Assembly: GCA_963813305.1 (NCBI GenBank)
Contig: CAWEYP010000006.1
Span: 31,056 to 95,055 of the forward strand
Direction: 5' to 3'
DNA length: 64,000 nucleotides
Source of the DNA: an uncultured Chloroflexia bacterium
GTDB taxonomy: Bacteria > Chloroflexota > Limnocylindria > Limnocylindrales > CSP1-4
Below are positions 1 to 64,000 of the stretch, one piece after another. Numbering within the stretch: position 1 is the first letter of the stretch; every line of letters begins with the position of its first letter. The position numbers and the translations under genes were made by a program. The notes beneath the pieces are model-generated. The model was given only the letters and a program-made list of their open reading frames with translations, had not been told where the DNA came from and did no database searches.

Positions 1-182
1 AGGCGCGCCTGGAGGGCATCGAGGCGGCGCTCGCCGACCCGCTGGTCCACCTCCACGTCTACGACAAGCGGCGCGTCTTCGAGCGCCGGAAGATGGGCCA
101 CCTGACCGTCACCGGGGCGGCCGATGTCGACGAGGCGCTGGCCCGCGGTCGGGCTGCCGCCGCGAAGCTGCGGTGGGCGTGA
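1..182 (+). CDS. purK: N5-carboxyaminoimidazole ribonucleotide synthase (PurK), C-terminal fragment entering from the left edge
   Basis: Frame 3 reads ...VHLHVYDKRRVFERRKMGHLTVTGAADVDEALARGRAAAAKLRWA* and ends at TGA 180-182. The RxGRKMGH-type tail is typical of PurK C-termini. It is absent from the ORF track because there is no start in the window. Confidence 0.7.
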   Translation, partial: ARLEGIEAALADPLVHLHVYDKRRVFERRKMGHLTVTGAADVDEALARGRAAAAKLRWA

Positions 183-283
183 CGAGGGTCGTCGTGCGGC
201 GCGCGGTGCGACGCCGGATACCGGCCGGTCGACTCGTCGATCAGCCCGTTCCTCGATCGTCGCCGGGGTGAAGGAGGCAGACC

Positions 284-649
284 GTGAAGTTCATCCTGTT
301 CACCTGGGTCAGCCCGGAGGGGGACGCCCGATGGAACGCCATGACCCGCGAGGAGCGGACCGTCGACGTCGATCGCCACCGGGAGTGGTTCGCGCGCTAC
401 GGCGCCTCGATCACGGCCGGCGAGGAGCTGGGCGATCGGCGCAGCTTCCGCGTCGTGCGGCGAAGTCGCGACGGCCGGCCCCTCGCGACCGACGGCCCAT
501 TCATCGAGACCAAGGAGTGGGTCGGCGGCTTCATCGTCGTCGACGTCCCCGATCGGGCGGCCGCCGAGGCGATGGCGGCCGAGTGGCCCGGCCTCGACTA
601 CCCCGGCCACGCGGTCGAGGTCGTCCCGACCGGGGAGACGGTCCCCTGA
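284..649 (+). CDS. YCII-related (YciI/DGPF family) domain protein
   Basis: ORF 284..649. GTG start lies 6 nt after AAGGAGG (271-277). PLATDGPFIETKEWVGGFIVVDVPDRAAAEAMA matches the YciI/DGPF signature. Confidence 0.8.
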   Translation: MKFILFTWVSPEGDARWNAMTREERTVDVDRHREWFARYGASITAGEELGDRRSFRVVRRSRDGRPLATDGPFIETKEWVGGFIVVDVPDRAAAEAMAAEWPGLDYPGHAVEVVPTGETVP

Positions 650-862
650 GTCCCCGGCCTCCGGACCACGATTCGGTCCGGGCCGGGGGCCGCCCCGCCC
701 GACGGCCCGACCCTCCTCCTCGTCCCGTGCCCGGACTGCCGCGCCCTGGTCCCCGACATCGACGGTCCGACCCACGCCTACATCGGCGGCAACGCCGGCT
801 GCTGGGCCGCCTGGGGTGAGCTACAGGCACGCGCCTACGCGGACCCCGCCCTCGCCGCCGTC

Positions 863-1213
863 ATGCCGCTGGCCGTCGACGCCTACGCGGCGCAACACCA
901 CGGTGTCGAGGGGCGCCGCCAGGCCCAGTCGGTCTGGGTGCACCTCGTCAGCCTCTGCGCGATCCTCGAGCGTGGCCGGACGCCGTTCGACGGCATCCGG
1001 ATCAAGCAGGACCTCCTGCGCGACGACCCCGTCTTCGCCTGGCTCCAGCCGCCGGCCGATCCGGGTGACGTGACGGTCCTCGACGTGGCCGCAGCGTCCG
1101 GCCCGAAGGTTGCGGCCGCCGTGTGGCGATGGGCGCAGTCGGTCTGGGACGCCTCGTCCGCCTACCGTGACGCGATCCGCGCCCGCACCGACGAGGTCGC
1201 CCCGCGACGGTGA
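863..1213 (+). CDS. DUF5946-like protein (first canonical start; the homologous region continues upstream to about 653)
   Basis: ORF 863..1213 (VDAYAAQHHG...VWVHLVSL...VWRWAQSVWDA). The same frame is open and protein-like back to the TGA at 647-649. That stretch encodes a Cys/His N-terminus, CPDCRALVPDIDGPTHAYIGGNAGCW, with no ATG/GTG/TTG upstream of it. Confidence 0.6.
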   Translation: MPLAVDAYAAQHHGVEGRRQAQSVWVHLVSLCAILERGRTPFDGIRIKQDLLRDDPVFAWLQPPADPGDVTVLDVAAASGPKVAAAVWRWAQSVWDASSAYRDAIRARTDEVAPRR

Positions 1214-2234: not shown

Positions 2235-3717
2235 ATGACCGCCCAGCCGCACCGGATCACCGTCATCCCCGGCGACGGGGTGGGCCCGGAGGTCGTCCGG
2301 TCCGCGCAGCGGATCATCGCCGCGGCCGGCGTCGCCATCGACTGGGAGGAGGCCGAGGCCGGCGCCGAGGTCTTCAAGCGGGGCGACACGTCGGGCGTGC
2401 CGAAGGCCACCCGCGAGTCGATCGAACGGACGCGGGTCGTCCTGAAGGGTCCCCTCGAGACGCCGGTCGGCTTCGGCGAGAAGAGCGCCAACGTCACGCT
2501 GCGCAAGCTCTTCGAGACCTACGCCAACGTGCGCCCCGCGCGCGAGCTCCCCGGCGTGCCCACCCGCTACGCGGGCGAGGGCGTGGACATGATCATCGTC
2601 CGCGAGAACATCGAGGACCTGTACGCCGGCATCGAGCACATGCAGACGCAGGACGTCGCGCAGTGCCTGAAGATCATCACCCGCAAGGGCAGCGAGAAGA
2701 TCATTCGCTACGCCTTCGAGCTGGCCCGCCGCGAGGGGCGCCGGAAGGTGACCTGCGCGACCAAGGCCAACATCATGAAGCTGACCGAGGGCCTCTTCAA
2801 GCGGACCTTCGAGGAGCTCAGCGCCGAGTATCCCGGAGATCACGGCCGAGCACCTGATCATCGACAACGTCGCCCACCAGATGGCCAAGAACCCGGCCCA
2901 GTTCGACGTCGTCGTCACGACCAACCTCAACGGCGACATCATCAGCGACCTCGCCTCGGGGCTGGTCGGCGGCCTGGGCTTCGCGCCCTCGGGCAACTAC
3001 GGCGACGACGTGGCGATCTTCGAGGCGGTCCACGGCTCGGCCCCGAAGTACGCCGGCAAGGACGTCATCAACCCGACCGCGCTGATCCTCTCGTCGATCA
3101 TGATGCTGCGGCACGTCGGCGAGACCGCAGCGGCCGATCGGGTCGAGGACGCCGTCCTGGTGACGCTCGAAGAGGGCAAGGCGGTCACCCAGGACCTGGC
3201 CCGCCAGACCGGCGGCGACGTGGAGCACGCGGCGTCGACGACCGGCTTCACCGACTCGATCATCGCGAACCTCGGCAAGCAGCCGACGACCGTCCCGCCG
3301 CGCTCCGACTCGGAGCGCCCGTCGGGCGAGGCGACGCCGAAGCCGTCGTGGAAGTACGGGGCTGCTGTCTCGGCCGCCGTCCCGCGCACGACGGTCGGGG
3401 TCGACCTCTTCCTCGAGACGTGGGAGCCGGCCGACGCGGCCGGGCCAGCGCTCGCGGCGCTCGCCGGCGATGCACTGACACTCCAGATGATCTCCAGCCG
3501 CGGCACGATGGTCTGGCCCAGCACCGGGCTCTCGCCCGACAGCGTGGGCCTGCTGCGGGCACGCTTCGTGGCGCAGGCCGCGCGGCGCCGGCTGTCACGG
3601 ACGCGGAGATCGCCTGCGCTCGTGCTGCGGGTCGGCGAACGGTTCGCCTGGACGCACGTGGAGAAGCTCCACGTCTTCGCCGGCGAGGACGGCTTCACGA
3701 AGGCGCAGGGTCAGTAA
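2235..3717 (+). pseudogene. icd: Isocitrate dehydrogenase (isocitrate/isopropylmalate dehydrogenase family, long C-terminal extension), frame-disrupted as assembled
   Basis: MTAQPHRITVIPGDGVGPEVV... lies in the frame of ORF 2052..4280. It continues as MAKNPAQFDVVVTTNLNGDIISDLASGLVGGLGFAPSGNYG in ORF 2881..3717. The join SAEYP/EITAEHLIIDNVAHQ needs a 1-nt correction near 2830. AGGAGA lies 8 nt before ATG 2235. Confidence 0.85.
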
Positions 3718-3720: not shown

Positions 3721-4252
<532 letters not shown>

Positions 4253-4372: not shown

Positions 4373-7300
4373 CTACCGGGCCGCGGGGCTCTCCGCGCCG
4401 GCAGTGGTCCCGAGCAGGGTGTCGAAGCGTGCGATCAGCGGGGCGGAGCGGAGCTCGACGAGGATCGCCCGTGCCTCATCGGCGGCGCCGAGGTCGATCG
4501 CCGCCTCGGGCCCGAGCACGGCCGCCACCTCGAGGACCGTGAGCGCGAGGCTGTACCGCATTCCGTGGTCGCGATAGCGGTCGAGCGCCACCCGGTAGCC
4601 GCTGATCGCCTCGTCCCGACGTCCCGCGAGGGCCGCGGCAGCCGCCTCGACCATGGCCAGCTCGGCGAGGACGGCGCGGCGGCCACGCAACGCCACCAGC
4701 GCGGTCCGCATCTCCTCGACCCGCCCGGTGTTGCCGGTCAGCAGCGCGAGCCGGGCCTCGAAGCCGATCTCGGCGGCGGCCCACGTGCTACCCCAGGCGA
4801 TCCTCCCCCGCTCGATCCAGGCCAGCCCGCCGGCGAAGTCGGCGCGGAGGTACGCGGCGCGGGCCAGCGAGCTGGCGGCGTTCCCGAGCGTCTGCGGGTC
4901 GGCGGCGGCCTCGCCCGTCCGCCACATGGCCTCGAGGACGTCGTGATGATCCTCGCCGCGGTAGGTGGCGATCGACGCCGCGATCCACTCGAACCACTGT
5001 CGGGCGCCAGGGTCGCGATGGATCTCCAGCAGCTGCCGCGCCGTGGCCTCGACCCAGCCCCACTCGCCCAGGACCTCGCCCGTCCCGAGCCCGTTGCCCA
5101 TGAAGTACGTGGCGTAGCCCATCAGGCCAAGGCGCGTCACCTCGTCCATGCCGGCCCGGGCGATCTCGAACGCTCCCCGCGGATCCTCGTCGCCTGAGAA
5201 CGAGCCCATGTTGATGCTTGCCCGGAGCGCCACCCAGTGGAAGCCCTCCTGCTGCATCAGCAGCCGGGTACCACCCAGGAGGGCCCACCCCTCGCTCCGG
5301 CGGCCGAGGTTCAGCAGGACGCTGGAGCGCGTCACGAGGGCGTGTCCGCACAGCAGGTCGAGCCCGGCGTCCTCGCAGAGCGTGATGGCGCGATCGCACC
5401 ACGGGAGGGATTCCGCGGACCGAGCGGAGCGGAAGAGCGCCCGCGACCACGCCTCGGCGAATCGCGCGGCGTGGGGGCCCGGCGGCAGAGCCTCCGCCTC
5501 GGCGACGAGGGGCTCCAGGAGGTCGACCGCCGCGCCGATCTCGGCGGCCGTGAGGTAGACGCTGCCGAGCGAACCGCTCGCTCCGATCACGGCCGCCCGG
5601 TCGCCGGTCCGCTCCAGGCGGGCGATCGCCTCACGGAGCAACGGCATGCTGTCGGTCGCGCCGCCCGCGTAGACGAGGGTCTCGCCGGCGCGAACGAGGG
5701 CCGCGGCCGCCTCGGCGTCGCTCGTGGCGATCTCGGCCACGGCACGCAGGTGGATGACACCCTGCTCGAGGGCCCCCACCTCGATCGCCCGGTCGGCGGC
5801 CGCGCGGAGCGCCAGTCGGGCCTGGGCGCCCGCCGCCTCGCCTTCGGGGCCCTCGGGTGCCGCGCGGTAGGCCGCCAGGTACTGCTCGGCGAGCGAGCTC
5901 GCGTGCTCCTCGCCGAGTCCCTCGAAGTGGCGCGCGGCTGCCAGGTGCCGGACCCGGCGATCGCGCCGGGCCAGGGTCGAGTACGCGACGTCCCGGAGGA
6001 GCGCCTGGACGAAGCCGAAGCGGCCGCGGTCCGGTGAGCGCGGATCCGTCTCCAGCGTGAAGACCTCGCGCCGCACGAGACCGCGCATGCGCGGCTCCAG
6101 CGCGGCCGGGTCCTGGCCGCTCACCGCGGCGAGCGCTGCGACCGAGAAGCGCCCGGCGAGCACCGAGGCGTCCTGCACGAGCGCCCGGTCGGCCGCTTCG
6201 AGGCCGTCGAGGCGGGCTCCGACGAGGGCCAGCAGGGACTCGGGCGGCCGCAGGTCGGAGAGGTCGCGGGTCGGCCGGAAGACGCCGTCCGCCTCGACCA
6301 GCGCCCCGTCGGAGAGGAGCATCCGGACGATCTCGACCGCGTAGAGCGGGATGCCCCCGGCCCGCCCCAGGATCCCTTCGACGGCGACCTCGGGGAGGCC
6401 GGGGACCAGGCCGTCGAGCAGGGCGCGCATCGCCTGGTCGCTCAGCGGCTCCAGGCGCACGGCCGTGGCGTTCGGGCGGTCGGTGCCCCACCCCGGCCGC
6501 CGGTCCAGGAGCTCGGGGCGGGCGAGCGTCACGACCAGGAGCGGCTTGTGCCGGCTCCAGTCGAGCAGGTGGTCGATGAAGTCCAGGAGGCCGTCGTCCC
6601 CCCAGTGGAGGTCCTCGAAGACGAGCATCGTGGTGCCGTGGTCGGCGATGCGCTCGAACAGGGTGCGCCACGCGGCGAACAGCTCCTCGCGGCCGCCCGG
6701 CGGGGTCTCGCCGACGCCGAGCAGCGCGAGCAGCCGGGGTTCGACGCGCGCCCGTTCGACGGGGTCGGGAAGCCACTCGGTGCAGGTGTCCGCGATCCGC
6801 CGCCGGGTGACGTTCGCGTCGTCGTCGTCGCCCAGCCTCGCCCGCCGCCGGACCATCTCGGCCAGGGCCCCGAACGCGCTCCCCGCACCGTAGGCGGCGG
6901 ACCGCCCAGCGTGCCAGTAGACGCTCTCGACGACGCCGTCGAGGTACTTCTCCAGCTCCCAGGCAAGTCGCGTCTTGCCGATCCCCGCCTGGCCGACGAT
7001 CGACAGGAGCCGCGCCCGCCCGTCGCGACCGGTGGCATGGAAGCTGTCCTTGAGCAGCCGCAGCTCGTCGTCGCGGCCGACGAAGGGCGGCTCGACGATG
7101 TCGTTGGGCCCGCCGCGACGCTCGCCGACGACGCGCACGGCGCGGAAGGCCGTGACCGGCGCCGGCTTGCCCTTCAGGACGTGGTCGCCCGGCCGCCTCG
7201 AAGAAGATGGCCGGCCCCACGGCCCGCCGCGTGGACTCCCCGACGAGGACGGCCCCGGGCGGCGCCACCGCCTGCAGCCGGGACGCAGTGTTGACGAGGT

Positions 7301-8001
7301 CGCCTGCCACCATCCCCTGGCCCTGGGCGCCAAGGGTGACCGCCGCCTCGCCGGTCAGCACGCCGGCCCGCAGCTGGAGCTCGAGTCCCGCAGCCGGATC
7401 CGAGAGGGTGCGGACGGCGTCGACCAGCTCGAGGGCCGCCCGGACGGCGCGCTCGGCATCGTCCTCGTGTGCCGTCGGCGCGCCCCAGACGGCCATCACG
7501 GCGTCCCCGATGAACTTCTCCACGTTGCCGCCGTAGCGCGCGATGACGTCGCGAGCGGCGTCGAAGTAGCGGCCGAGGAGCTCGCGCGTCGCCTCCGGGT
7601 CGCGGTCCGCGGAGAGCGCGGTGAAGCCGACGAGGTCGGCGAAGAGGACGCTGACGAGCCGGCGCTCGGCCGTGGCGACGCCCGCCCGGGCGCGGTCCTC
7701 GCCCCGACCCGCCGCCGGGCCTGCCGCGATGCCCGGTGCCCGGTGCGCCGGCCGTCCCCGGCGGGCCGCCCGCGTCGATCCGGCCGCCGCAGCTTCCGCA
7801 GAACTTGGCCCCGGCCTCGTTCGAGGCGCCGCAGCTCGGGCACGCGGCCGCCAGCGGGCCGCCGCATTCGAGGCAGAACCGTCGGCCGCCGGTGTTCGAG
7901 GTGCCGCAGGCGGGGCAGATCACGGGACGCTCCGTGGTGTGGTGCGCTGAGAGCGGGAGCGTACTCGACGGCGCCCCGTCGAGGGAACCGGGCGGGCCCA
8001 A
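4373..8001 (-). pseudogene. Double zinc ribbon - class III nucleotide cyclase - AAA/STAND ATPase - TPR signalling protein, two frame changes as assembled
   Basis: Three ORF pieces in three frames join seamlessly. 7174..8001 carries CPACG..CLECG..CPSCG..CGSCG. 5631..7523 carries VEKFIGDAVMAVWGAP...DLVNTASRLQ. 4373..7333 carries Walker A GQAGIGKTRLAWE and then about 650 aa of TPR-like helices. The shifts are at about 7740 and about 7190. Confidence 0.8.
7733..7746. repeat. 7-bp tandem duplication CCGGTGC x2 inside the cyclase gene; it causes the first frame change
   Basis: Read directly and consistent with the ORF-track peptide ...AGAPGTGH... Deleting one copy gives ...AGAPGIAAGPAAGRGEDRARAGVATAERRLVSVLFADLVGFT..., in frame with the cyclase core. 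Confidence 0.75.
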
Positions 8002-9838: not shown

Positions 9839-10265
9839 CGACGGCCGCCTTCCGGCGGCGCCAACGGCACGACCCCGGCCCGCTCGACCGGACGCAGGAG
9901 AAGGTCGCGCACCGAGCGACCGTTCAGGTAGAAGGCGGTGACCACGAGGAGCGCCAGGCGGATCGGCTCCGGGTTGCCCAGCGAGCCACTGCCAGAGGGC
10001 CGCCAGGAGCCCGAGCCCGGTCGCCAGCATGAGCAGCACCCAGCCCCAGCGGTGCAGGGTGACGAGGAGGAGGGCACCCGCGAGCAGCATCGCGGACCAG
10101 CCGGCGATGATGACCCGGACGAGCTCCGGCGGACAGCTCGATCCCCTTGAGCGAGAACTCGGGCACGGCGCGCAGCCCCGCCACGCCGGAGAGCGCCCAC
10201 AGGCCGCCGACGACCGCGAGGGCGGCGAGGGCGAGGATCCCGAAGGGACGGCCGGCGATGCGCAT
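9835..10265 (-). pseudogene. Small polytopic membrane protein, 2 frame changes as assembled
   Basis: MRIAGRPFGILALAALAVVGGLWAL (ORF 9924..10289) continues as ELVRVIIAGWSAMLLAGALLLVTLHRWGWVLLMLATGLGLLAALWQWL (ORF 7496..10330 frame). It then continues as NPEPIRLALLVVTAFYLNGRSVRDLL...* (ORF 9835..10200). Confidence 0.5.
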
Positions 10266-15588: not shown

Positions 15589-15600
15589 GAGCCCCCTCCC

Positions 15601-54122: not shown

Positions 54123-54839
54123 GTGCGCGAGATCCCTGCCGCGGAGCGTCCCCGCGAGCGGCTCGCGGCTCGCGGCGCCGCGGGCCTGACGTCCGCCGAG
54201 CTGATCGCGCTGGTCTGGGGCTCGGGCGCGCGCGGCCTCGGCGCGGTCGATCTGGCGGAGGAGGCGCTGGCGCGCCACGACGGGCTCGCGGGGCTGGCCC
54301 GGGCCAGTGAGCTCGAGCTCGTCGACCTGCCGGGCGTGGGGGCGGCGAAGGCGGCCCAGCTGACCGCCTCCTTCGAGCTCGGACGGCGCCTCGTCGCCGA
54401 CTGGCCGGCGGGTCGCTGGATGGTCCGGGCCCCGCGCGACGTCGCCGACCGGCTCCTCCCGCTGATGGGACACCTGGAGCGCGAGGAGCTGCGGGTGGTC
54501 CTGCTGAACGCCAAGAACACCGTCCTGAAGGTCGTGACGGTCTACCAGGGCAACGTGCTCGCGCGCCTCGTCCGGGTGGGGGAGCTCTTCCGGGACGCGG
54601 TGCGGATCAGCGCCGCGGGCGCGATCCTCGTCCACAACCACCCGTCCGGCGACCCCACGCCGTCGCCCGACGACCTCCACCTGACCGCCGAGGCCCTCGC
54701 GGCCGGCCGGCTCCTCGACATCGAGCTCCTCGACCACGTGGTCATCGGCCACGACGCGTTCGTCTCGCTGCGCGACCGGGGCGTCGCCTTCGACCGGGTC
54801 GGTCCTGGGCTGCGGGGTCGGGCGACGGCGGCGGAGTGA
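54123..54839 (+). CDS. radC: RadC-family JAB-domain protein (UPF0758)
   Basis: ORF 54030..54839. The likely start is GTG 54123 (VREIPAAERPRERL, the usual RadC N-terminus). It has HhH LPGVGAAKAAQL and the JAMM-like HNHPSGDPTPSPDD. It lies upstream of mreB, as in many Gram-positives. Confidence 0.8.
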   Translation: MREIPAAERPRERLAARGAAGLTSAELIALVWGSGARGLGAVDLAEEALARHDGLAGLARASELELVDLPGVGAAKAAQLTASFELGRRLVADWPAGRWMVRAPRDVADRLLPLMGHLEREELRVVLLNAKNTVLKVVTVYQGNVLARLVRVGELFRDAVRISAAGAILVHNHPSGDPTPSPDDLHLTAEALAAGRLLDIELLDHVVIGHDAFVSLRDRGVAFDRVGPGLRGRATAAE

Positions 54840-55041
54840 GCGCCGGGCAGGCGCCGGGGCGGAGCCGCGCGGAGGGCCTGGCCCGCTGACGCCCGGCTGC
54901 CGGCGCGGGCCCGCCCGTCGCCCCGGGGTATACTCCGCGGGCGGTCGGGAACGTCCGCACGCGCCGCCGCGCCCCCGAGACCACGGGGCGCCCGCCGCGG
55001 GCGGCCCCGAGCGATCCAGCCGAAGGACACCCCCCCGCATC

Positions 55042-56094
55042 ATGCTCGACGCGCTCCTCAGCCTCTTCTCCCGCGACATCGGCATCGACCTCGGGACCGC
55101 GAACACGCTCGTTCACGTGCGCGACCGCGGGATCGTGATCAGCGAGCCGAGCGTCGTGGCCATCGACGCCAAGACGAAGAAGGTCCTGGCGATCGGCGCC
55201 GAGGCGAAGCGGATGGTCGGCCGCACGCCGGCGAACATCATCGCCATCCGGCCGCTGCGCGACGGGGTCATCAGCGACTTCGACGTCACCGAGCAGATGA
55301 TCAAGTACTTCGTGCACCGGGTCCACGACCGGATCGGGCTGATCCCGCGGCCCCGGATGGTGCTGGGGATCCCGTCCGGCGTGACCGAGGTGGAGAAGCG
55401 CGCCGTGCGCGACGCGGCCCTCAACGCGGGGGCCCGCTGGGCCCGCCTGATCGAGGAGCCGATGGCCGCGGCGATCGGCGCCGGCCTCCCGGTCTCCGAG
55501 CCGACCGGCTCGCTGATCGTCGACATCGGCGGCGGCACGACCGAGGTCGCGGTCATCAGCCTGGGCGGCATCGTCGTGAGCCGGAGCATCCGGATCGGCG
55601 GCGACGAGATGGACATGGACATCGTCGCCTTCGCCCGCCGGGAGTACAACCTGCTCCTCGGCGAGCGCACCGCCGAGGACATCAAGATCGCCATCGGCTC
55701 GGCGTACCCCGGCGACTGGGACGCCCAGCGGGTGCTGCTCCGCGGCCGCGACCTCCTGACCGGGCTCCCGCGCAGCGTCGAGGTCGGCGCCGACCAGGTG
55801 CGCGAGGCCATCGAGCCGTCCGTCCAGCAGATCGTCGACACGATCAAGGACACGATCGAGGAGACGCCGCCGGAGCTCGTCGCCGACATCATGGACCAGG
55901 GCATCGTGCTGGCCGGCGGCGGCGCGCTCCTGCTGGGCCTCGATCGCCGCGTCGCCGAGGCGACCCAGATGCCGGTCCACATCGCCGACGACCCGCTGAC
56001 CTGCGTGGCGCGCGGCACGGGCGTCGTGCTCCAGGAGCTCGACCGGATGAAGCGCGTGCTCGTGGCCGACACCTACTCGCGGCCGCTGCGGTAG
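55042..56094 (+). CDS. mreB: Rod-shape-determining actin homologue MreB
   Basis: ORF 55042..56094 is intact. It has DIGIDLGTANTLV, GGGTTEVAVISLGG and GIVLAGGGALL. Confidence 0.95.
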   Translation: MLDALLSLFSRDIGIDLGTANTLVHVRDRGIVISEPSVVAIDAKTKKVLAIGAEAKRMVGRTPANIIAIRPLRDGVISDFDVTEQMIKYFVHRVHDRIGLIPRPRMVLGIPSGVTEVEKRAVRDAALNAGARWARLIEEPMAAAIGAGLPVSEPTGSLIVDIGGGTTEVAVISLGGIVVSRSIRIGGDEMDMDIVAFARREYNLLLGERTAEDIKIAIGSAYPGDWDAQRVLLRGRDLLTGLPRSVEVGADQVREAIEPSVQQIVDTIKDTIEETPPELVADIMDQGIVLAGGGALLLGLDRRVAEATQMPVHIADDPLTCVARGTGVVLQELDRMKRVLVADTYSRPLR

Positions 56095-56105
56095 GGAGCG
56101 CCGAG

Positions 56106-57088
56106 ATGACCGGCCGGCTCGCCGGCTACGGGCACCGCGCCCCGCGGATCGCACGGCGCCGCGCGGTCGTCTTCGCCGATCCTCCTCGGGGTCACGATGA
56201 TCCTGATGATCGCCAGCGCCACGGCGCCCGTCGCGGAGCTGCAGCGGGGCCTGGCCTTCGCCCTGTCGCCCTTCGCGGAGGCCGTGAACGGGTCGGCGCC
56301 CAGGCCCGCTCGGTCGTCGACGCGGCCGCGGAGATCGACCGGCTGCGCAACGAGAACGCCAGCCCTCCGCGCCGACAACGACCGCCTGGAGCAGCACAAC
56401 CGGAACCTGGCGGCGCTCGCGACCGAGAACGAGCAGCTGACCGCGCTGCTCGCCATCCGCAACTCGCTGGACTACTCGACCGTGGCCGCGCGGGTGATCT
56501 CGCGGGAGCTCGCCGACGTCAACCGCGTGGTGATGATCGACGCCGGGAGCGAGGACGGCCTCAAGATCGGCGACGTCGTGATCGGGGCCGGCGGCGCCCT
56601 CGCCGGGCGCGTGACCGAGCTCGGGACCAGCGCCGCGCGGGTGACCCTCATCAACGACCCCGCGTCGACGGTGATCGGCGAGATCGTCACGAGCCGCGCC
56701 ATCGGGCGAGGTCGTCGGCGACCTGGGCGGGGCGCTGGTCATGGACAAGATCGACGCGACCCAGCGCATCACCATCGGCGACGAGGTGGTGACGGCAGGG
56801 ATCAGCCTGGGCGAGGCCGTCCGCTCGCCGTATCCCAAGGGCCTGGTGATCGGCCGGATCATCGACGTCACGCGCGACCCGAACGCCGTCGTCCAGACGG
56901 CGTTCGTCGAGGCCGCCATCGACCTCGACCGCCTGGAGGCGGTCCTGGTGATCACCGACTACGAGGGAGGCATCCCCGGGACCGACCTCCTGCCGACCGA
57001 CGACATCAACCCGGACGGGACGCTGCCCGACTCCGAGCAGCCGTTCGCGACCCAGGCGCCCACCCCGCGTCCGACGCGGCGGCCGTGA
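56106..57088 (+). pseudogene. mreC: Rod-shape protein MreC, about 4 frame changes as assembled
   Basis: It begins MTGRLAGYGHRAPRIARRRAVVFA (ORF 56106..). The TM helix and coiled coil alternate between ORFs 56197.. and 56106.. (AEIDRLRNENA / LRADNDRLEQHNRNLAALATENEQL). The beta domain is in 56197.. (VMIDAGSEDGLKIGDVVI) and in 56741..57088 (ITIGDEVVTAGISLGEAVRSPYPKGLVIGRI). Confidence 0.8.
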
Positions 57089-57134: not shown

Positions 57135-57897
57135 ATGAAGGGCCTGATCCTCGCCGGCGGCACGGCCACCCGGCTGTTCCCGCTCACGATCGTCACCAAC
57201 AAGCACCTGCTGCCGATCTACGACCGGCCGATGATCTACTACCCGCTCGAGACCCTCGCCGGGATGGGGATCCGCGAGGTCCTCGTGATCGTCGGCGGCA
57301 AGAGCGTCGGCGACGTCGTCGAGCTGCTGGGCGACGGCGAGCACTTCGGCCTGAGCCTGACGTACCGCTACCAGCGCGGCGCGCTCGGGATCGCCCACGC
57401 CATCGGGCTGGCCCGCGAGTTCGTCGGCGAGGACTCCTTCTGCGTGGTTCTCGGGGACAACATCCTTCGCGGGCCGGCCCTCGAGCCGGTCGCGTCCGCC
57501 TTCGAGGTGGGCCCGTGGGGCGGCGGCACGCTGCTCTACGAGGTCCCCGATCCGGAGCGCTTCGGCGTCGCCGAGCTGGACGCGGACGGGCGAGTCGTCG
57601 GGTTCGAGGAGAAGCCGGCCCACCCCCGGAGCAACCTGATCCCGATCGGCGTCTACTTCCTGCGCCCTGACGCCTTCGACGTCATCGACACGCTCGCGCC
57701 GTCGGGTCGCGGCGAGCTCGAGATCACCGACGTGCTCAACCACTACGTGGCCGGAGGCCGGCCTCTACGCGCCTCGCTACGAAGGCCACTGGACGGATGC
57801 CGGCACGGTGCCGTCGCTGCTTCGGGCGGCCGAGCTCGCGGAGGCCTCGCAGGCCGAGGGCCTCCTGGCACCGCCCCCGGAGCGCCCCTCCGCGTGA
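57135..57897 (+). pseudogene. rmlA: Glucose-1-phosphate thymidylyltransferase (short form), C-terminal tail shifted as assembled
   Basis: It has MKGLILAGGTATRLFPLT, LGDNI and ERFGV. After ITDVLNHYVAGG the natural tail (..YEGHWTDAGTVPSLLRAAELAE...*) is in the +1 frame, ending at TGA 57895-57897. In the given frame the ORF runs on into rmlB, producing the ORF-track entry 57135..58997. Confidence 0.85.
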
Positions 57898-58997
57898 CCG
57901 GCGCGAAGCGGCACCGGCGGCTCCTGGTGGCGGGCGGGGCCGGCTTCATCGGGAGCTGCTTCGTCCGCGACGTCCTGGGGCGCCGCGACGGGACGGGGAT
58001 CACCGTGCTCGACAAGCTGACGTACGCGGGCAACCGGGCCAACCTGGCCGACGTGGAGGCCGACCCCGAGATGGCGGCCCGGTTCACCTTCGTGCGCGGC
58101 GACATCGCCGATCCAGCGGTCGTGCTGCCCCTGGTGGCCGAGGCCGACGCGGTCGTCAACTTCGCGGCGGAGAGCCACGTCGACCGCTCGATCCTCGAGC
58201 CGGCCGCGTTCCTGCGGACCGGGGTCGACGGCGTCCACGTGCTGCTGGAGGCCGTGCGCGTCGAGACACAGCGGGCCCGCGCCGGCGAGCGGACCGCGCC
58301 GCGCCTCCTCCAGGTCTCCACCGACGAGGTGTACGGCTCGATCGAGGAGGGGAGCTCGGTCGAGACGAATGCGCTGGCGCCGCGCTCCCCGTACGCCGCA
58401 GCCAAGGCTGCCGGGGAGCTTCTGGCGCGGGCCTACCACGTGACCTACGGCCTTGACGTCGTCGTCACCCGGGGCTCGAACACCTACGGCCCGTATCACC
58501 ACCCCGAGAAGCTGATCCCGCTGTTCGTGACGAACGCGCTGGACGACCAGCCGCTGCCGCTGTACGGCGATGGCCTGCAGCGACGGGACTGGCTCTTCGT
58601 GAGCGACCATGCCGGGGCGGTGGCCCACGTCCTGGAGCACGGCCTGCCCGGCGAGGTCTACAACGTCCCCGGCGCGGCCGAGCTCACGAACCGCGACGTG
58701 GCCGCACGTCTCCTCGCCCTCCTCGGCAAGCCCTGGTCGCTGGTGCGCTCGGTGGCCGACCGGCCCGGCCACGACCGCCGCTACGCGATGGACGGCGCTC
58801 GACTCCGCTCCCTCGGGTGGACCAACCGGGTCGGCTTCGACGACGGGCTGGCCTTGACCGTCACGTGGTACCGCGACCACCCGGCCTGGTGGCGGGCGGC
58901 CCGCGACGATGACTGGGACGCCTACTACGCACGCCAGTACGCCGACCGGATCGCGACGTCCACGCCCGCCGCCGCCCCGCCGGGGGAGCCCGGCTGA
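57894..58997 (+). CDS. rmlB: dTDP-glucose 4,6-dehydratase
   Basis: GTG 57894 overlaps the natural rmlA stop (GTGA). It has VAGGAGFIGS and the SPYAAAK (YxxxK) motif. It shows full-length collinearity with RmlB. Confidence 0.9.
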   Translation: MTGAKRHRRLLVAGGAGFIGSCFVRDVLGRRDGTGITVLDKLTYAGNRANLADVEADPEMAARFTFVRGDIADPAVVLPLVAEADAVVNFAAESHVDRSILEPAAFLRTGVDGVHVLLEAVRVETQRARAGERTAPRLLQVSTDEVYGSIEEGSSVETNALAPRSPYAAAKAAGELLARAYHVTYGLDVVVTRGSNTYGPYHHPEKLIPLFVTNALDDQPLPLYGDGLQRRDWLFVSDHAGAVAHVLEHGLPGEVYNVPGAAELTNRDVAARLLALLGKPWSLVRSVADRPGHDRRYAMDGARLRSLGWTNRVGFDDGLALTVTWYRDHPAWWRAARDDDWDAYYARQYADRIATSTPAAAPPGEPG

Positions 58998-59947
58998 TGC
59001 GCGTCGCCGTGACCGGAGCCGGCGGCCGCCTGGGTCGTGCCCTGGTCGCCGCCCTCGAGGACGCCCCGTTCACCGGCCCCGCCGGGCCGCTGGCCTGGAG
59101 CCGCCCGGACTACGACCTCGACGATCCCGCTGCGGCCGCCCGGGTCGTCGGCCGCGACGCGCCCGACGTGGTCATCCACGCTGCCGCCTGGACCGATGTC
59201 GACGGCTGCGCCCGCGAGCCCGGACGCGCGATGCGGCGCAACGCCATCGCCGCCGCCGAGATGGCGGACGCCTGCGCCACCGTCGGGATCGACCTGATCC
59301 TCGTCTCGACGAACGAGGTCTTCGACGGCCGGCGCGTCGACGGACGTGGGTACGCGGCCAACGACCGTCCCGCTCCGGTCAACGCGTACGGCACCAGCAA
59401 GCTGACCGGCGAGACCGCAGCCCAGGCCGCCTACCTGCGCCGCGGCGGCGTGCTCGACGCCGATCCGGCCGGCGAGGCGCCCGGGGGGTCGCAGCTGGCG
59501 ATCGTCCGGACGGCCTGGCTCTTCGGGCCTCCCGGCAACGATTTCCCGGCCCGGATTCTGGGAGCCGCCGACCGGGCGCTCGCGGCCGGCGAGCCGCTGC
59601 GCGTGGTCGGCGACGAGGTGGGCTCGCCGACCTACGCCCACGACCTTGCCGACGCGATCGTCGAGCTCCTGGGGGCTGGCTCCTTCGCCGGTGTCCACCA
59701 CGTCGTCAACGCCGGCGCGACCAGCAGGGCCGCCTGGGCTCGCGCCGTCCTGGCCGCGGCCCGCCTGTCCGTGGAGGTCCGCGAGGTTCCCCTGAGCAGC
59801 TGGACGCGCCCCTCGGCCGTCCCGGCCTGGGCCGTCCTTGCCCCGACGCCGCTGCCGTCCGGCGAGCCCCTTCGAACATGGGAGGCCGCCTTCGCCGACT
59901 ACGTCCCGGCGCTCCTGCGCACGCGGACGGCCGGGACCCGTCGATGA
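58997..59947 (+). CDS. rmlD: dTDP-4-dehydrorhamnose reductase
   Basis: ORF 58997..59947 is intact. It has VTGAGGRLG and NAYGTSK (YxxxK). The ATG overlaps the rmlB stop by 1 nt. Confidence 0.9.
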   Translation: MRVAVTGAGGRLGRALVAALEDAPFTGPAGPLAWSRPDYDLDDPAAAARVVGRDAPDVVIHAAAWTDVDGCAREPGRAMRRNAIAAAEMADACATVGIDLILVSTNEVFDGRRVDGRGYAANDRPAPVNAYGTSKLTGETAAQAAYLRRGGVLDADPAGEAPGGSQLAIVRTAWLFGPPGNDFPARILGAADRALAAGEPLRVVGDEVGSPTYAHDLADAIVELLGAGSFAGVHHVVNAGATSRAAWARAVLAAARLSVEVREVPLSSWTRPSAVPAWAVLAPTPLPSGEPLRTWEAAFADYVPALLRTRTAGTRR

Positions 59948-60534
59948 GCGACCGGCTGCGCTCCGGCGGCTCGCCGATCCCCGGGGTGGCGTGGGGCGCG
60001 GTCGTCCGCCACGCCGACGCGCGCGGAAGCTTTCGGGAGCTGTGGCGGGCGAGCGCCTTCGGGGAGCTCGGTGTCGAGCGGACCGGACGGGACGGCGCGG
60101 CGTTCGTGCAGGCGAACCTGTCGACGTCGGCGCCGGGGGTGCTCCGCGGCCTGCACTCCCACCGGCGTCAGCTGGACCACTGGGTCGTCGCATCCGGACG
60201 GGCGTTCGTCGCGCTCGTCGACGTGCGCCCGCTCATCGCCGCGACGGCCGACCGCCCGCCGGTCGAGGTTCGCGAGATCGCGGCGGACGACACCCTCACC
60301 ATTCCCGCGGGCGTCGCCCACGGCTTCCTCGCCGTCGAGCCGCTCGAGCTCGTGTACTTCGTGACGGGCGAGTTCGACGGGAGCGACGAGCTCGGCTTCG
60401 CCTGGGACGACCCGCTCGCGGGGGTGCCGTGGCCGACGATTCCCGGGACGCCCGACGGACGGCCGATCCTGTCGGGCCGCGACCGCGCGAACCCGTCGCT
60501 CCCGGAGCTGGTGGCCCGCCTCCGCGCGATGTGA
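59944..60534 (+). CDS. rmlC: dTDP-4-dehydrorhamnose 3,5-epimerase
   Basis: The last 196 aa of ORF 58909..60534 (MSDRLRSGG...RGSFRELW...LRGLHSH...GVAHGFLA). There is an ATGA overlap with rmlD. Confidence 0.9.
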   Translation: MSDRLRSGGSPIPGVAWGAVVRHADARGSFRELWRASAFGELGVERTGRDGAAFVQANLSTSAPGVLRGLHSHRRQLDHWVVASGRAFVALVDVRPLIAATADRPPVEVREIAADDTLTIPAGVAHGFLAVEPLELVYFVTGEFDGSDELGFAWDDPLAGVPWPTIPGTPDGRPILSGRDRANPSLPELVARLRAM

Positions 60535-60761
60535 CGCCCAGGGTGCCGTCGGGCACCACCGGGCGTGGTGCGCCGACGCACCGCAGCGACCGGGCACGAA
60601 GGGCACCCGTCCCGTCGCGACCCCACCGGACTGCCCGGGAGTCGCCGCCGGCATAGCCCTTCGGAGCCATGGGACGCCGCCGAAGGCGCGATTGAGGGGC
60701 GTGGGCGGCGCCGCCACGGTGGATGTGTCCTCATCCGCGCTCCGTTCCGGAGGCACCCATC

Positions 60762-63074
60762 GTGCGTCGCGTCGCCGCCGGCATCCTGGCCGGCCTGCTC
60801 CTCTTCGCGCTGGCCTGGACGGGCACGCCCGCGCCCGCCGCCGCCGTCGTGCCGAGCGACCCGAAGGTCGTCCTCGTCGTCGGCGCCACGCACGGGACGA
60901 CGTCGCAGTACCGCTCATACATGAACGTCGTGGCCGCGACGGCCGCCCGGTACTCGCGGAACGTGGTGAAGGTGTACAGCCCCAACGCCACCTGGTCGGC
61001 CGTCAGGGCCGCGCTCAAGGGAGCCAGCATCGTGGTCTACATGGGCCACGGCAACGGCTTCCCCAGCCCGTACTCCACGACGCCGAACCCGTACACCCAG
61101 AACGGGATGGGGCTCAACCTGACCGCCGGGGCCGGCGATTCGAACACGAAGTACTACGGCGAGCAGTATTTCGCCAACTACGTCGACCTGGCCCCGAACG
61201 CGGTCGTCATCCTCAGCCACAACTGCTATGCGTCGGGCAACTCCGAGCCGGGCAGGGCGGAGCCGTCGCTGGCGGTCGCCAAGGCCCGGATCGACAACTT
61301 CGCCGCCGGGTTCCTGCGGGCGGGCGCGCGCGCCGTGATCGCCGACGGCCACAGCGACCCGTCCTGGTACGTCGAGCAGCTCTTCACCACGCATCGCACG
61401 GTCGAGCAGATCTGGCGCAGCGGGCCGCGTCCCCACGGGAACACGTTCACCTTCGCCAGCGTCCGGACGCCCGGCTACACCGCGTTCTCCGACCCCGATC
61501 ACCGCTCGGGCTCCACGATCACCGGGTTCTACCGGTCGCTGGTCGCGAAGCCGACGCTCACCTCCGACCAGGTGACCGGCGCGCGCCACGCGCGGACCGA
61601 CGCGCACCCCGGCTTCTTCGTCGTGCCGGGCGCTGCCGCGGTCAGCGCGGTCGAAGGGGTCGGCCTCTACGCGGACGCGACGCTGACCCCGGATCCGGCG
61701 ACGGGCCTCGCCGCCGCGACGCTCCCCCTCGGGACGCGCCTGCGGGTCCGGGCGGCGGCCGGGACCAGCCCGACGGGGTCGGCGATCTACGACGTGGCGA
61801 CCCTCGATGGTGCGACGAGCGGGTTCGTCACGGCGGCCGGCCTCGTGCCCCGGGATTCGGCGAGCCCCGTCATCTTCGAGCTCGACCCGGGGACGGGCAC
61901 GGTCAGCCCGGCAGCCGGATCCACGACCGCCATCACGGCGCGCGCCTCGGAGGCGGTCTCGTGGCACGTGGAGGTCCGCGCTCAGGACGGCTCGGCGGTC
62001 GCCACGATGGCGGCCGAGGGCGAGGAGCTGGCCACGTCGTGGGACGGCCGGACCGACGGCGCCGCGGCTCCCGAGGGTGCCTACGAGGTCGTCGTCAAGG
62101 CCTACGACGGGTGGGGCAACCCGCCGGCCACGGCGTCGACCGTCGTCATCGTCGACGTCACGCCGCCGACGCTCTCGTCCGTGGCCGTGATGGGCGGCGT
62201 CGCGACGTTCTCCCCGAACGGCGACGGCGCGGGCGACACGGCCCGCTTCGCCTTCCACATGAGCGAGCCCGGCCTGGTCTTCGGGACCGTGCGCGACGCG
62301 AACGGCGACAAGACGACCACCTTCTCCGGCCAGGCGGCGACGACCAGCGGGACCGTGAGCTGGGACGGCCGGCGAGCCGACGGCTCGTACGTGCCCGACG
62401 GCGTCTACTCGGTCGCCCTCTCGCCCCGCGACGTGGCCGGCAACGTCGGCTCGTCGGTGGGCACCAGCGTGGCCGTCTACACCGCGCTGTCGCGGGTCAA
62501 GGCCGCCTCCTACGCGTTCTGGCCGAACGACCGGGACGGCTACGCCTCGCGGATGTGGCTCGCCTTCGAGCTCGACACCGCGGCGCGGGTGACGTGGACG
62601 CTGAGCGACCCCGCCGGCGCCACCGTCATGACCTTCCTGGACGACGTCGAGTCGCCCGCCGGTCGGTACGCCATCCCCTGGGACGGGCGGCTTCCCGGCG
62701 GACGCTTCGCCCCGGCCGGGATCTACACGTCGCGGGTGGTCGTCACGGACGGGACCCTCGTGGGGTCGGGGGCGGCGCGCTTCCATGTCAACGCCTTCCG
62801 CCTGTCGCTCTCGACGTCGAGCCCGTCGCGCGGCGGCGCCGTGACGGCGACCATCGTGGCCACGGAGCCGATGAAGGCGAACCCGTCGATCACCGTCAGC
62901 CAGCCCGGCGTCGCCTCCTACACCGTGCGGACCGTGAAGACCAGCACCTACGGGTACCGCGCGACGTTCCGGCTCTCCCGGGGCGGCGCGGCCGGCACGA
63001 TCACGCTCACGGTGAAGGGCTACGATGCCCGCGGTGGGTACAACTGGTCGCGGTTCGCCTTCCCGCTTCGCTGA
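60762..63074 (+). CDS. Secreted multidomain protein: N-terminal His/Cys-dyad domain (clan CD caspase/gingipain-like by motif) plus three to four FlgD-Ig-like domains
   Basis: ORF 60723..63074. GTG 60762 lies after GGAGG. The signal peptide is VRRVAAGILAGLLLFALAWTGTPAPAAA. It has ASIVVYMGHGNG and AVVILSHNCYASGN (beta-strand-H-G and beta-strand-C). It has repeated FSPNGDG...WDGR...G.Y modules, e.g. ATFSPNGDGAGDTARFAF...VSWDGRRADGSYVPDGVY. Confidence 0.75.
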   Translation: MRRVAAGILAGLLLFALAWTGTPAPAAAVVPSDPKVVLVVGATHGTTSQYRSYMNVVAATAARYSRNVVKVYSPNATWSAVRAALKGASIVVYMGHGNGFPSPYSTTPNPYTQNGMGLNLTAGAGDSNTKYYGEQYFANYVDLAPNAVVILSHNCYASGNSEPGRAEPSLAVAKARIDNFAAGFLRAGARAVIADGHSDPSWYVEQLFTTHRTVEQIWRSGPRPHGNTFTFASVRTPGYTAFSDPDHRSGSTITGFYRSLVAKPTLTSDQVTGARHARTDAHPGFFVVPGAAAVSAVEGVGLYADATLTPDPATGLAAATLPLGTRLRVRAAAGTSPTGSAIYDVATLDGATSGFVTAAGLVPRDSASPVIFELDPGTGTVSPAAGSTTAITARASEAVSWHVEVRAQDGSAVATMAAEGEELATSWDGRTDGAAAPEGAYEVVVKAYDGWGNPPATASTVVIVDVTPPTLSSVAVMGGVATFSPNGDGAGDTARFAFHMSEPGLVFGTVRDANGDKTTTFSGQAATTSGTVSWDGRRADGSYVPDGVYSVALSPRDVAGNVGSSVGTSVAVYTALSRVKAASYAFWPNDRDGYASRMWLAFELDTAARVTWTLSDPAGATVMTFLDDVESPAGRYAIPWDGRLPGGRFAPAGIYTSRVVVTDGTLVGSGAARFHVNAFRLSLSTSSPSRGGAVTATIVATEPMKANPSITVSQPGVASYTVRTVKTSTYGYRATFRLSRGGAAGTITLTVKGYDARGGYNWSRFAFPLR

Positions 63075-63194
63075 GGAGCGACCCCGACGGGCGCCCCCCA
63101 CGGGCATCGCCGAGCGCACCGGACCGCACCAGACCGCCCGGTACCACCCCTGCGCGGGACCATCGGCTCAATGGTGCGACCGGGCGTCCCGGCG

Positions 63195-63200
63195 TAGGGT
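63195..63200 (+). promoter_or_regulatory. -10-like hexamer TAGGGT, 9 nt upstream of ATG 63210
   Basis: Read directly. There is no obvious SD. Confidence 0.25.
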
Positions 63201-63209
63201 TCCGGGGTC

Positions 63210-64000
63210 ATGACGAACCGCCCTGACGGCGAGCCCGCGCGCTCCCGCCGCCGTCACCTGCTCGCCATCCTGCTGGGGCTGACGCTCGTCGCGGGCCTCC
63301 CGGCGGGCGCCGTGGGCCGCGATCCGGCGCCGTTCCGGGCCCTGCCCGACGCCTCGGCCACGGTCCCGCCGACCGTCGCCCCGGCGGTCGATCCGCCGGC
63401 CGTGCCGCCACGTGACGGGGCTCCCCCGGATCCGCGGGCCTTCCAGGTCATGCCCGGCGATGCGCCGAGCCAGATGTACCTGGACCTGCTCGCGGCCGGC
63501 GGCGAGGAGATCGAGTTCGTCCCGGGCGGCCGGGTGACCGTTCCCTTCGTCCCGCGGGCGGACGACTCGTGGCCGGTCGGCGGCACGAGCCCACGGCCAC
63601 TCCCCGCCGGACTGGAATCGGGCGCTGAGATGGCTGGCGTCGAGGCAACCCCGAAGCCCGACCCGACCCCGTCGACCCCGGCAACGCCCGACCCGACGCC
63701 CGGGCCGACACCGGCAACGCCCGACCCGTCGCCCGAGACACCGCCCGACCCGTCGCCCATTCCCGCCGTGGGAGCCTCCTGGGTCTCCCCGGGCGACCAG
63801 GCCGCGATGGCCCCCGCGGCCACGAGCATGCGCCGCGAGGTCTACGGCTTCCTGCCGTACTGGGAGGTCGGCGACAGCGACACGCGCCTCGACTTCTCCA
63901 TCGTCACCCATCTCGCCTACTTCTCGGTGGGGGCAGACGGCGGCGGCAACCTGCGCAAGCGGGAGAGCAGCGGCTCGCTGACCACCGGCTGGGCCGGCTG
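63210..64000 (+). CDS. Secreted (Tat-like signal) protein with a Pro/Thr-rich linker and the start of a glycoside hydrolase family 18-like domain; runs off the right edge
   Basis: It reads MTNRPDGEPARSRRRHLLAILLGLTLVAGLPAGAVG, then the linker TPKPDPTPSTPATPDPTPGPTPATPDPSPETPPDPSP, then REVYGFLPYWEVGDSDTRLDFSIVTHLAYFSVG, typical of the first strands of GH18/YaaH-like domains. It is absent from the ORF track because there is no stop in the window. Confidence 0.6.
   Translation, partial: MTNRPDGEPARSRRRHLLAILLGLTLVAGLPAGAVGRDPAPFRALPDASATVPPTVAPAVDPPAVPPRDGAPPDPRAFQVMPGDAPSQMYLDLLAAGGEEIEFVPGGRVTVPFVPRADDSWPVGGTSPRPLPAGLESGAEMAGVEATPKPDPTPSTPATPDPTPGPTPATPDPSPETPPDPSPIPAVGASWVSPGDQAAMAPAATSMRREVYGFLPYWEVGDSDTRLDFSIVTHLAYFSVGADGGGNLRKRESSGSLTTGWAG

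Follow-up and report, generated by a model that had tools for sequence, protein, structure and literature searches.

Frameshifts in a 64,000-nucleotide stretch of an uncultured Chloroflexota genome are very probably long-read consensus errors, perhaps arising at strain-polymorphic sites

The stretch of DNA analysed here (the window) is 64,000 nucleotides long and belongs to a member of the Chloroflexota (Limnocylindrales group). It carries about 54 genes, 20 of which (~37%) are broken by frame-changing indels; an earlier note on this DNA had put the share at about half, which is too high. The broken genes and the event-free stretches are given below with the positions of the events and the evidence used.

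2235 to 3714, plus strand: icd (isocitrate dehydrogenase), inserted G at 2835 (CCC[G]GAG), placed at 2832 by frameshift-aware alignment with relatives L163, L164 and L165; continuous Pfam match, window-only column
3721 to 4249, plus strand: purE, one inserted base at 4173-4177; Pfam and alignments
4376 to 7923, minus strand: adenylate/guanylate cyclase with AAA_16 domain (1182 aa), insertions 7187 (C within a G run) and 7732-7734 (G), neither found in the same-species contig L166; Pfam and alignments
8008 to 9838, minus strand: conserved 608-aa protein (called Vps62-like in the earlier note), private insertions 8399, 8596, 8612 and 9385, and three common to L166 (8545, 8611, 8757); alignments
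9838 to 10265, minus strand: 142-aa membrane protein, insertions 9982 and 10126 (GCC[G]GAG); alignments including L166
11257 to 12748, minus strand: DUF2252 gene, one insertion (11368) near the 3' end; Pfam and alignments
11369 to 27826: clean block of 16.5 kb with ~12 genes, in which the same-species contig has ~30 private extra bases; segmentation and alignments
27267 to 28609, minus strand: pmbA, insertions 27827 (A) and 28068-28073 (T where a G run meets a C run); Pfam and alignments
28669 to 30122, minus strand: tldD, 12 inserted bases (28705, 28766, 28770, 29087, 29112, 29153, 29281, 29283, 29319, 29634, 29883, 30000) and one deletion (29464); alignments
30331 to 32524: clean stretch with tmk, a GGDEF gene and a CdAMP_rec gene, all intact; alignments with relatives
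32567 to 33081, minus strand: nitroreductase, insertions 32844 and 33064; Pfam and alignments
33218 to 33862, plus strand: DinB_2 gene, deletions 33360, 33401, 33460 and 33651, about three insertions (33760, ~33778, ~33818); outgroup alignments
33862 to 34355, plus strand: Nudix hydrolase, insertions 34020 and 34155-34158; alignments
34571 to 35358, minus strand: second cyclase (264 aa), insertions 35095 and ~35320; alignments
35569 to 36737, plus strand: IMPDH-like (guaB3-like) gene, insertions 35578 and 36575-36581; alignments
37135 to 41855, minus strand: giant Big_3_5 repeat gene, clean over 37135-40530, then insertions 40531 and ~41180, a 2-nt insertion 41563-4 and deletions 41692 and 41786; segmentation, alignment with L081, internal duplication
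42132 to 43990, plus strand: guaA, seven window-only single bases (42357/42361, 42533, 42718, 42877, 42898/42900, 43086, 43324); alignments
44337 to 46106, plus strand: alpha/beta hydrolase (TAP-like), 5-6 events, mostly insertions (~44763, 45095, 45671, 45750, 45883-45887), positions approximate at the 52-55% identity of the references; segmentation, alignment, Pfam
46215 to 46709, plus strand: hypothetical 156-aa gene, three insertions (~46305, 46392, 46475); segmentation and alignment
47371 to 50768, plus strand: UPF0182 gene, insertions 47506, 47549, 47723, 48077-48082 and 49286, final 1.5 kb clean; alignments
49287 to 56289: clean block of 7.0 kb with hyp386, DZR, Rce1-like, RadC and MreB genes; segmentation and alignments
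56173 to 57058, plus strand: mreC, -1 change at ~56290, +1 changes at ~56361 and ~56704; segmentation, alignment with MreC of L009
57129 to 57884, plus strand: rmlA, one insertion at ~57753; segmentation, Pfam NTP_transferase match 1-242/245 over the junction
57754 to 64000: clean block of 6.2 kb with rfbB, rfbD, rfbC and downstream genes; codon-usage model only

Reading frames were called by codon-usage Viterbi segmentation, which showed many frame changes on the same strand. It replaced a GC3 frame plot that recovered the frames but gave noisy strand calls, and it overlooks close compensating events such as the three insertions at 29086-29153. When stop-to-stop ORFs of relatives were used in a tblastn search, off-frame and antisense ORFs, which remain open at 74% GC, drowned out the true matches. 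A custom frameshift-aware protein-to-DNA alignment was used in its place; intact proteins of relatives span the breaks in it, and the junctions could be placed. Sites in the giant gene were checked by comparing its internal 566-nt duplication (40407-40972 with 41228-41792). The earlier observation that the pieces of split genes join without loss of homology was borne out, as the stitched pieces give a single continuous Pfam match over the junctions in icd, purE, the cyclase, DUF2252, pmbA, tldD, nitroreductase, alpha/beta hydrolase, MreC (1-147/147, spanning a junction) and RmlA, and the intact proteins of relatives align over the breaks. In nucleotide alignments with relatives the events appear as columns occupied by the window alone, and removal of the seven such columns from guaA yields one clean ORF.

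About 76 frame-changing indels, representing 68 inserted and 8 deleted bases, were compiled by hand from the alignments, those in the alpha/beta hydrolase, the 156-aa gene and mreC and at position 41180 being approximate in site. The earlier estimate of ~60 frame changes was too low. The strong bias to +1 was confirmed: the excess of insertions over deletions has a binomial p of 5.6e-13, and one-base insertions make up 89% of the spectrum. Changes formerly read as -1 or +2 proved to be of mixed origin. True deletions do occur (29464; 33360, 33401, 33460 and 33651 in DinB_2; 41692 and 41786 in the giant gene; ~56290), but several of these changes are paired insertions (guaA 42877 + 42900) or 2-nt insertions (29281/29283, 41563-4). 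For UPF0182 the five shifts counted before correspond to five insertions, while guaA has seven insertions in place of six shifts, or eight if an uncertain one in the N-terminal extension (42237) is counted. The densest gene is tldD, with ~9 events per kb, and DinB_2 holds the sole local cluster of deletions in the window.

The events are strongly clustered (index of dispersion 4.9; chi-square p = 4e-18), in agreement with the uneven blocks described before. No event lies between 11368 and 27827 (16,459 nt; P = 3e-9 under a uniform rate), and 37135-40530 in the giant gene, 49287-56289 and everything past 57753 are also event-free. The three stretches reported clean by the earlier note (~11.4-27.3 kb, the lower 3.4 kb of the giant gene and 57.9-63.1 kb) are all free of events. 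In contrast, 15 events fall in 27.8-30.0 kb, ~15 in 32.8-36.6 kb and ~27 in 40.5-49.3 kb. The edges of blocks lie inside DUF2252, the giant gene and UPF0182; DUF2252 is clean apart from 11368, so that the block boundary falls within the gene.

The coding sequence beneath the frameshifts is fully conserved. After correction, 13 broken genes (6,488 codons) showed a pN/pS of 0.209, compared with 0.213 in 19 intact genes, and had not a single in-frame stop; the earlier note, too, had seen no such stops. Relatives whose proteins are 92-96% identical have the 608-aa gene and guaA intact, the latter in relatives of 95-96% identity. Programmed recoding, by which ribosomal frameshifting or transcriptional slippage would restore the frames, has nothing in its favour beyond the joining of the pieces without loss of homology, and its probability is practically negligible, as the orthologues of all relatives read through these positions in one frame, the sites have no common slippery motif and a single gene has up to 13 events.

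Nearest to the window among its relatives are genome bins of the Microflora Danica (MFD) Nanopore set and ENA assembly contigs whose names follow the Flye style. Judging from the contig naming and from the MFD bins among the relatives, ERZ25039459, ERZ25039502 and ERZ25039554 appear to be MFD assemblies. MFD genomes were assembled by Flye 2.9.2 (--meta --nano-hq) and polished by one round of Medaka 1.8.0 (PMC12313526), and the relatives suggest that the window is very probably also a Nanopore R10.4.1 product of metaFlye and one Medaka round. Private 1-nt insertions are present in the Nanopore relatives L017, L078 and L082, while none was found in the well-aligned genes of the presumed short-read relatives.

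A second assembly of the same species, contig_93471 of ERZ25039502 (L166 and L167), is 98.2% identical to the window over 4469-25195 and 96.5-97.3% identical over 21045-37110. Its gaps relative to the window coincide with the frameshift sites of the window, and nearly all window insertions are absent from it. The tldD, Nudix, nitroreductase, second cyclase and DinB_2 genes are intact in L167; in tldD (481 aa) each site is a gap between the window and L167, and the outgroup DinB_2 proteins of L001 and L004 align without shifts to L167 but need shifts in the window. L166 has private insertions of its own, partly within the clean block of the window. With the JGI metagenome contig L163, taken as a short-read assembly, as outgroup, the polarised private columns were 18 insertions against 1 deletion in the window and ~32 against 2 in L166. 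L081 and L082 were also considered as a second same-species pair, and were dropped as they are only ~80% identical.

Only 3 of ~15 window insertions in the compared stretch recur in L166 (8545, 8611, 8757), against ~0.04 coincidences expected by chance; two of the three stand in a CC-GC to CCGGC context. Together they add up to +3 and might reflect a real change of very recent date. Their interpretation as an old, real compensated frameshift was rejected, since the original frame of the DNA continues to code for the conserved peptide: without all seven insertions the 608-aa gene gives a peptide ~90% identical to that of L163, and with the three common ones kept it gives an off-frame sequence rich in Arg, Pro and Gly.

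The frameshifts are private to this assembly, nearly all single-base insertions, and arranged in kilobase-scale blocks regardless of gene boundaries. With high confidence, the sequence comparisons attribute them to errors in the consensus of a long-read metagenome assembly rather than to mutation in the organism, since the other same-species assembly is almost free of them and has a different set of its own. This agrees with the earlier reading of insertion-prone long-read consensus errors, which the private indels, the equal pN/pS and the same defect in some of the Nanopore relatives all favour. A real and recent mass pseudogenisation of the lineage by a burst of +1 insertion mutations would also leave ~37% of the genes disrupted in the deposited sequence, and could account for the three indels common to two assemblies from different samples. 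It is nevertheless very improbable, as a 98% identical genome without nearly all of these indels and with different ones exists, pN/pS is alike in broken and intact genes with no stops, the blocks cut through genes, and central genes are struck (guaA, icd, purE, mreC, and tldD by 13 events). Bacterial mutation has a deletional bias, to which a spectrum of 89% one-base insertions is contrary. The organism almost certainly has intact icd, purE, guaA, tldD/pmbA, mreC and other genes.

The sequence context of 89 insertions was compared with expectation. CCGG stood at background level, overlapping 6 of them (7%) against 7.1 expected (8%) and lying within 5 nt of 13 against 13.4 expected. The earlier note had tentatively raised a methylation-linked CCGG effect, and neither this result nor the low recurrence in the second assembly sustains it. 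A systematic base-calling error at a methylated motif such as CCGG would fit the sites reading CCCGGAG or GCCGGAG and the recurrence of three sites in the second same-species assembly, two of them as CC-GC to CCGGC. It is an improbable cause all the same, given the background frequency of CCGG, the ~95% of insertion sites that the two assemblies do not share though their local sequence is alike, and the presence of the same motifs in the clean blocks.

Extension of homopolymers was depleted: the inserted base equals a neighbouring base in 29 of the 89 insertions (33%) against 47.3 expected (53%). It was unlike both neighbours in 60 (run length 1), with runs of 2 in 25 and runs of 3-4 in 4. Insertions of the type G[C]G or C[G]C were 3.5-fold enriched (29% vs 8% expected). 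In 26 of 39 insertions the inserted base was the allele of relatives at the adjacent column (null 9.3 +/- 2.6, which is unconditioned on codon position or local context, the rough conditional expectation being about half of the observed match). This adjacent matching column was a third codon position in 20 of the 39 (null 6.1), and 33 of the 39 abut a third codon position. The allele match was replicated in L166 (12 of 21; null 1.4). The allele match would also be raised by an error that depends purely on context and places a C between two Gs where codon positions 3 and 1 meet.

These context data appear to point to a consensus failure at strain-polymorphic sites rather than to uneven polishing, and the balance tilts slightly towards a mechanism in which, at SNPs between strains, the consensus retains the two alleles in succession. 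According to PMC8302730, Flye merges strains ~98.65% identical into one consensus, and a strain or sister lineage 98.2% identical to the window is demonstrably present in the same soil sample set. The contig would then be a collapsed consensus of co-occurring strains, the strain mixture and the coverage being themselves presumed. Reads would disagree at a SNP, mostly a synonymous G/C third position in this 74% GC genome, and the consensus step would emit both alleles next to each other ('GC' for 'G' or 'C'), adding one base. Blocks would be stretches that recruit a second strain or are thinly covered, and sites recurring in the assembly of another sample would be shared polymorphisms. Such doublets would explain the +1 bias, the lack of a link to homopolymers, the G[C]G/C[G]C excess, the blocks and the recurring sites. 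Several insertions of homopolymer type lie outside this model, as do the eight deletions, half of which are grouped in DinB_2. Private substitutions showed no clear excess in the dense blocks, save in one 1-kb bin at 5-6 kb.

A possible though rather doubtful alternative is generic noise of low-coverage or unpolished Nanopore sequence, in which the dense blocks would rest on 1-3 reads and strain variation would be irrelevant; it corresponds to the 'uneven polishing' of the earlier note. In Nanopore read errors deletions are no rarer than insertions and homopolymers are preferred sites, whereas here 68 insertions stand against 8 deletions and homopolymer extension is depleted. Plain noise would match neither the neighbouring allele of relatives nor the vicinity of third codon positions, and would not recur at three identical sites in another sample. 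On the other side, blocks of 2-9 kb that ignore gene boundaries are of single-read scale, the indel density of tldD (~0.9%) is near single-read error, the deletion cluster of DinB_2 resembles such noise, and consensus quality depends on coverage, ~40x of R10.4 data being needed for a near-finished consensus (PMC9262707). Low or uneven coverage may still contribute to the consensus errors.

No description of insertions at SNP sites was found in the literature searched, and it is an even call whether such doublets form a specific, homopolymer-independent failure mode of long-read metagenome consensus, with blocks of +1 changes, that this literature has not described before. The relevance lies in the quality control of high-GC long-read MAGs and not in a biological phenomenon. 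About a third of the predicted proteins of the contig are truncated or chimeric, which would make pathway completeness look too low and seed databases with fragments and off-frame 'proteins'. If the doublet mechanism is true, it would be a repairable weakness of consensus tools when strains are mixed and would suggest a simple correction rule, and blocks of this kind may be widespread among the high-GC bins with low coverage in public Nanopore catalogues. Quality control by coding density or ORF length would then miss such insertions, as off-frame ORFs stay open in 74% GC DNA; the seemingly intact 610-aa gene of L166, which conceals six insertions, is an example.

Mycobacterium leprae has a pseudogene-rich genome under reductive evolution. 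The window is like decay of this type in the large share of conserved genes that are frameshifted, but the other marks of such decay, namely changes shared by the lineage, stops, larger deletions and relaxed selection, are not seen in it. Classical Nanopore errors concern homopolymer length and are often deletions, unlike the present set, in which insertions predominate, homopolymer extension falls below expectation and the base added tends to match the other allele of an adjoining polymorphic site. In other respects the indel errors known from Nanopore-only genomes and MAGs (PMC9262707) are like those of the window: one-base indels fragment gene calls, are worse at low coverage, are absent from short-read assemblies of relatives and are open to homology-based correction, proovframe and Homopolish being among the frameshift-correction tools cited in that paper. 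The strain collapse of metaFlye treated in the Strainberry paper (PMC8302730) is similar in that strains ~98-99% identical are merged into one contig; passages of that paper speak broadly of indels and of a consensus that is mixed or mosaic, with no account in them of SNPs becoming two-base doublets, and this last step is what we infer from the window.

The window was divided into reading frames by a codon-usage Viterbi segmentation. Between long single-frame stretches lay series of short segments on the same strand, in which the frame index almost always moved by +1 as the coordinate grew. When the pieces were stitched, one unbroken Pfam match ran over the junctions in icd, purE, a cyclase, DUF2252, pmbA, tldD, the nitroreductase, the alpha/beta hydrolase, MreC (1-147/147) and RmlA (1-242/245). 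A custom frameshift-aware protein-to-DNA aligner, a kind of analysis which the earlier note had proposed, was run with the intact proteins of four relatives (L081, L163, L164 and L165; 85-96% identical) and bridged all breaks, nearly always via one skipped window base. In nucleotide alignments with relatives some columns were filled only by the window, and removal of seven such columns from guaA gave a single clean ORF. All three approaches agree that conserved proteins are split over frames, as the earlier note had described.

The indels were counted by hand from the alignments, part of the positions being approximate. The census gave 68 inserted bases and 8 deletions across 20 of about 54 genes (~37%). 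The former estimate of about 60 frame changes was thus right in kind and somewhat low in number, while the share of broken genes had been overstated as about half. The strong +1 bias was evident (p = 5.6e-13 for insertion over deletion). Several changes formerly read as -1 or +2 proved to be paired nearby insertions or 2-nt insertions, but true deletions exist as follows.

29464: one deletion
33360-33651: four deletions inside 300 nt, DinB_2 gene
41692 and 41786: deletions in the giant Big_3_5 repeat gene (37135-41855, minus strand), placed on the basis of its internal duplication
about 56290: one deletion

The DinB_2 cluster stands out, the remainder of the window being insertion-dominated. 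The giant gene is built of many 258-nt-scale Ig-like repeats and carries a 566-nt internal duplication (40407-40972 vs 41228-41792, 96.7% identical). The events were clustered (index of dispersion 4.9, chi-square p = 4e-18), in keeping with the uneven, block-wise spread noticed before. The 16,459 nt from 11368 to 27827 were free of events (P = 3e-9), as were 49287-56289 and everything past 57753. Block edges were found inside DUF2252, the giant gene and UPF0182.

The contig ERZ25039502:contig_93471 (60.9 kb; L166) was reached by exact-protein look-up of an intact 250-aa window protein, and its remainder (L167) from a protein in the same cluster as the GGDEF protein of the window. Identity to the window was 98.2% over 4469-25195 and 96.5-97.3% over 21045-37110, indicating that this contig is the same species assembled from another sample. 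Gaps between the two coincided exactly with the window frameshift sites, with the extra base on the window side. Intact in L166/L167 were tldD, which has 13 events in the window, and the Nudix, nitroreductase, cyclase-2 and DinB_2 genes, while pmbA, IMPDH-like, SpoIIE and DUF2252 were broken at sites other than those of the window. L166/L167 also had many extra bases of their own, about 30 of them within the clean block of the window. Polarisation with L163, a JGI metagenome contig presumed to be a short-read assembly, gave 18 private insertion columns vs 1 deletion for the window and about 32 vs 2 for L166. Therefore each of the two assemblies of one species has its own insertion-biased set of frameshifts.

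The pN/pS against relatives was 0.209 in 13 corrected broken genes and 0.213 in 19 intact genes. No in-frame stop was present in the 6,488 codons of the corrected genes, confirming the earlier observation, and gene decay was therefore ruled out. The private indel sets of two same-species assemblies and the equal pN/pS support the earlier reading as consensus errors, and the window frameshifts are very probably assembly artefacts. The finding is of low biological interest.

For the error signature, isolated insertions of the window (40) and of L166/L167 (49) were analysed together, 89 in all. In base composition they resembled the background (76% G/C). They extended homopolymers less often than expected (33% vs 53%), created CpG more often (51% vs 28%) and placed C between Gs or G between Cs with 3.5-fold enrichment (29% vs 8%). 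A CCGG-linked base-calling error, formerly considered, was not favoured, as CCGG was not enriched at these insertions (7% vs 8% expected). The signature was alike in the two assemblies, which points to a shared technical process behind the insertions of both.

Flye merges strains ~98.65% identical (PMC8302730). At a SNP on which reads from co-assembled strains disagree, the consensus step would emit both alleles in tandem and so gain one base. The inserted base equalled the relatives' allele at the directly neighbouring column, where the window differs, in 26 of 39 window insertions (null 9.3 +/- 2.6), and the matching column was a third codon position in 20 of 39 (null 6.1), the null being without conditioning on codon position or flanking context. 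A third codon position was adjoined by 33 of the 39. Private insertions of L166 showed the allele match in 12 of 21 (null 1.4). The rare base A gives examples, CCCG[A]CC in L166 vs CCCA-CC in L163 and CTCG[A]CGG in the window vs CTCG-AGG in L163. Because of this allele match, the SNP-doublet mechanism appears plausible, with a slightly better than even chance. It would account for the +1 bias, G/C composition, homopolymer independence and block structure, and also for three insertions common to both assemblies. Deletions and some homopolymer-type insertions need another cause, probably thin coverage. The doublets leave the DinB_2 deletion cluster unexplained. The mechanism is possibly a methodological point worth testing.

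The common insertions lie at 8545, 8611 and 8757 in a conserved 608-aa gene (8008-9838, minus strand), in assemblies of different samples, with about 0.04 chance coincidences expected. They total +3 and turn about 70 conserved residues into off-frame sequence, and the DNA still encodes the conserved peptide in the original frame. Either errors recurred here at polymorphic sites common to both, or a real change took place very recently. The L166 orthologue (15382-17214) has a seemingly intact 610-aa ORF which conceals six 1-base insertions, the frame straying and coming back with no stop met. At 74% GC, the content of the window, off-frame ORFs stay open, so checks of ORF length and coding density overlook such errors.

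Other local differences were also observed. The region 44045-46106, between guaA and hyp156, contains an alpha/beta hydrolase (TAP-like) and a short antisense-looking ORF (44045-44332), neither of which is present there in L081 and L082, two near relatives, indicating a local gene-content difference. The giant gene is ~76% identical to the same-species contig and its flanks 96-98%. Intergenic 30125-30310 and 33095-33217 show dense mixed indel differences from that contig, either real variation or errors. Window-private substitutions reach 41 per kb at 5000-6000, the C-terminal part of the cyclase/AAA_16 gene, compared with 4 for L166 there and with 0-18 per kb at other positions; the excess may reflect a switch to the haplotype of another strain (mosaic consensus) or a recombined segment.

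The genes of the window are closest to those of MAGs assigned to Chloroflexota / Candidatus Limnocylindrales. Many of these MAGs were produced by the Microflora Danica long-read project (names like 'MFDxxxxx.bin' and 'contig_NNN'), and the window presumably comes from this project too. Private 1-nt insertions were also found in the Nanopore-assembly relatives L017, L078 and L082, and were absent from well-aligned genes of presumed short-read contigs. L082 (ERZ25039459 contig_18110) is Flye-named and shares its assembly with L081, which is clean. Its UPF0182 region (13000-19000) is likewise broken, into ORFs of 49-495 aa with no Pfam matches, so the block-wise frameshift problem is not confined to the window. 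A near-finished R10.4 consensus takes about 40x coverage (PMC9262707). In the Microflora Danica project, data from kit-114 chemistry were base-called with Guppy (super-accurate mode), assembled with Flye 2.9.2 (--meta --nano-hq) and passed once through Medaka 1.8.0. Coding density was the sole error check of the authors, who associated low values with genomes of low GC that contain long homopolymers (PMC12313526).
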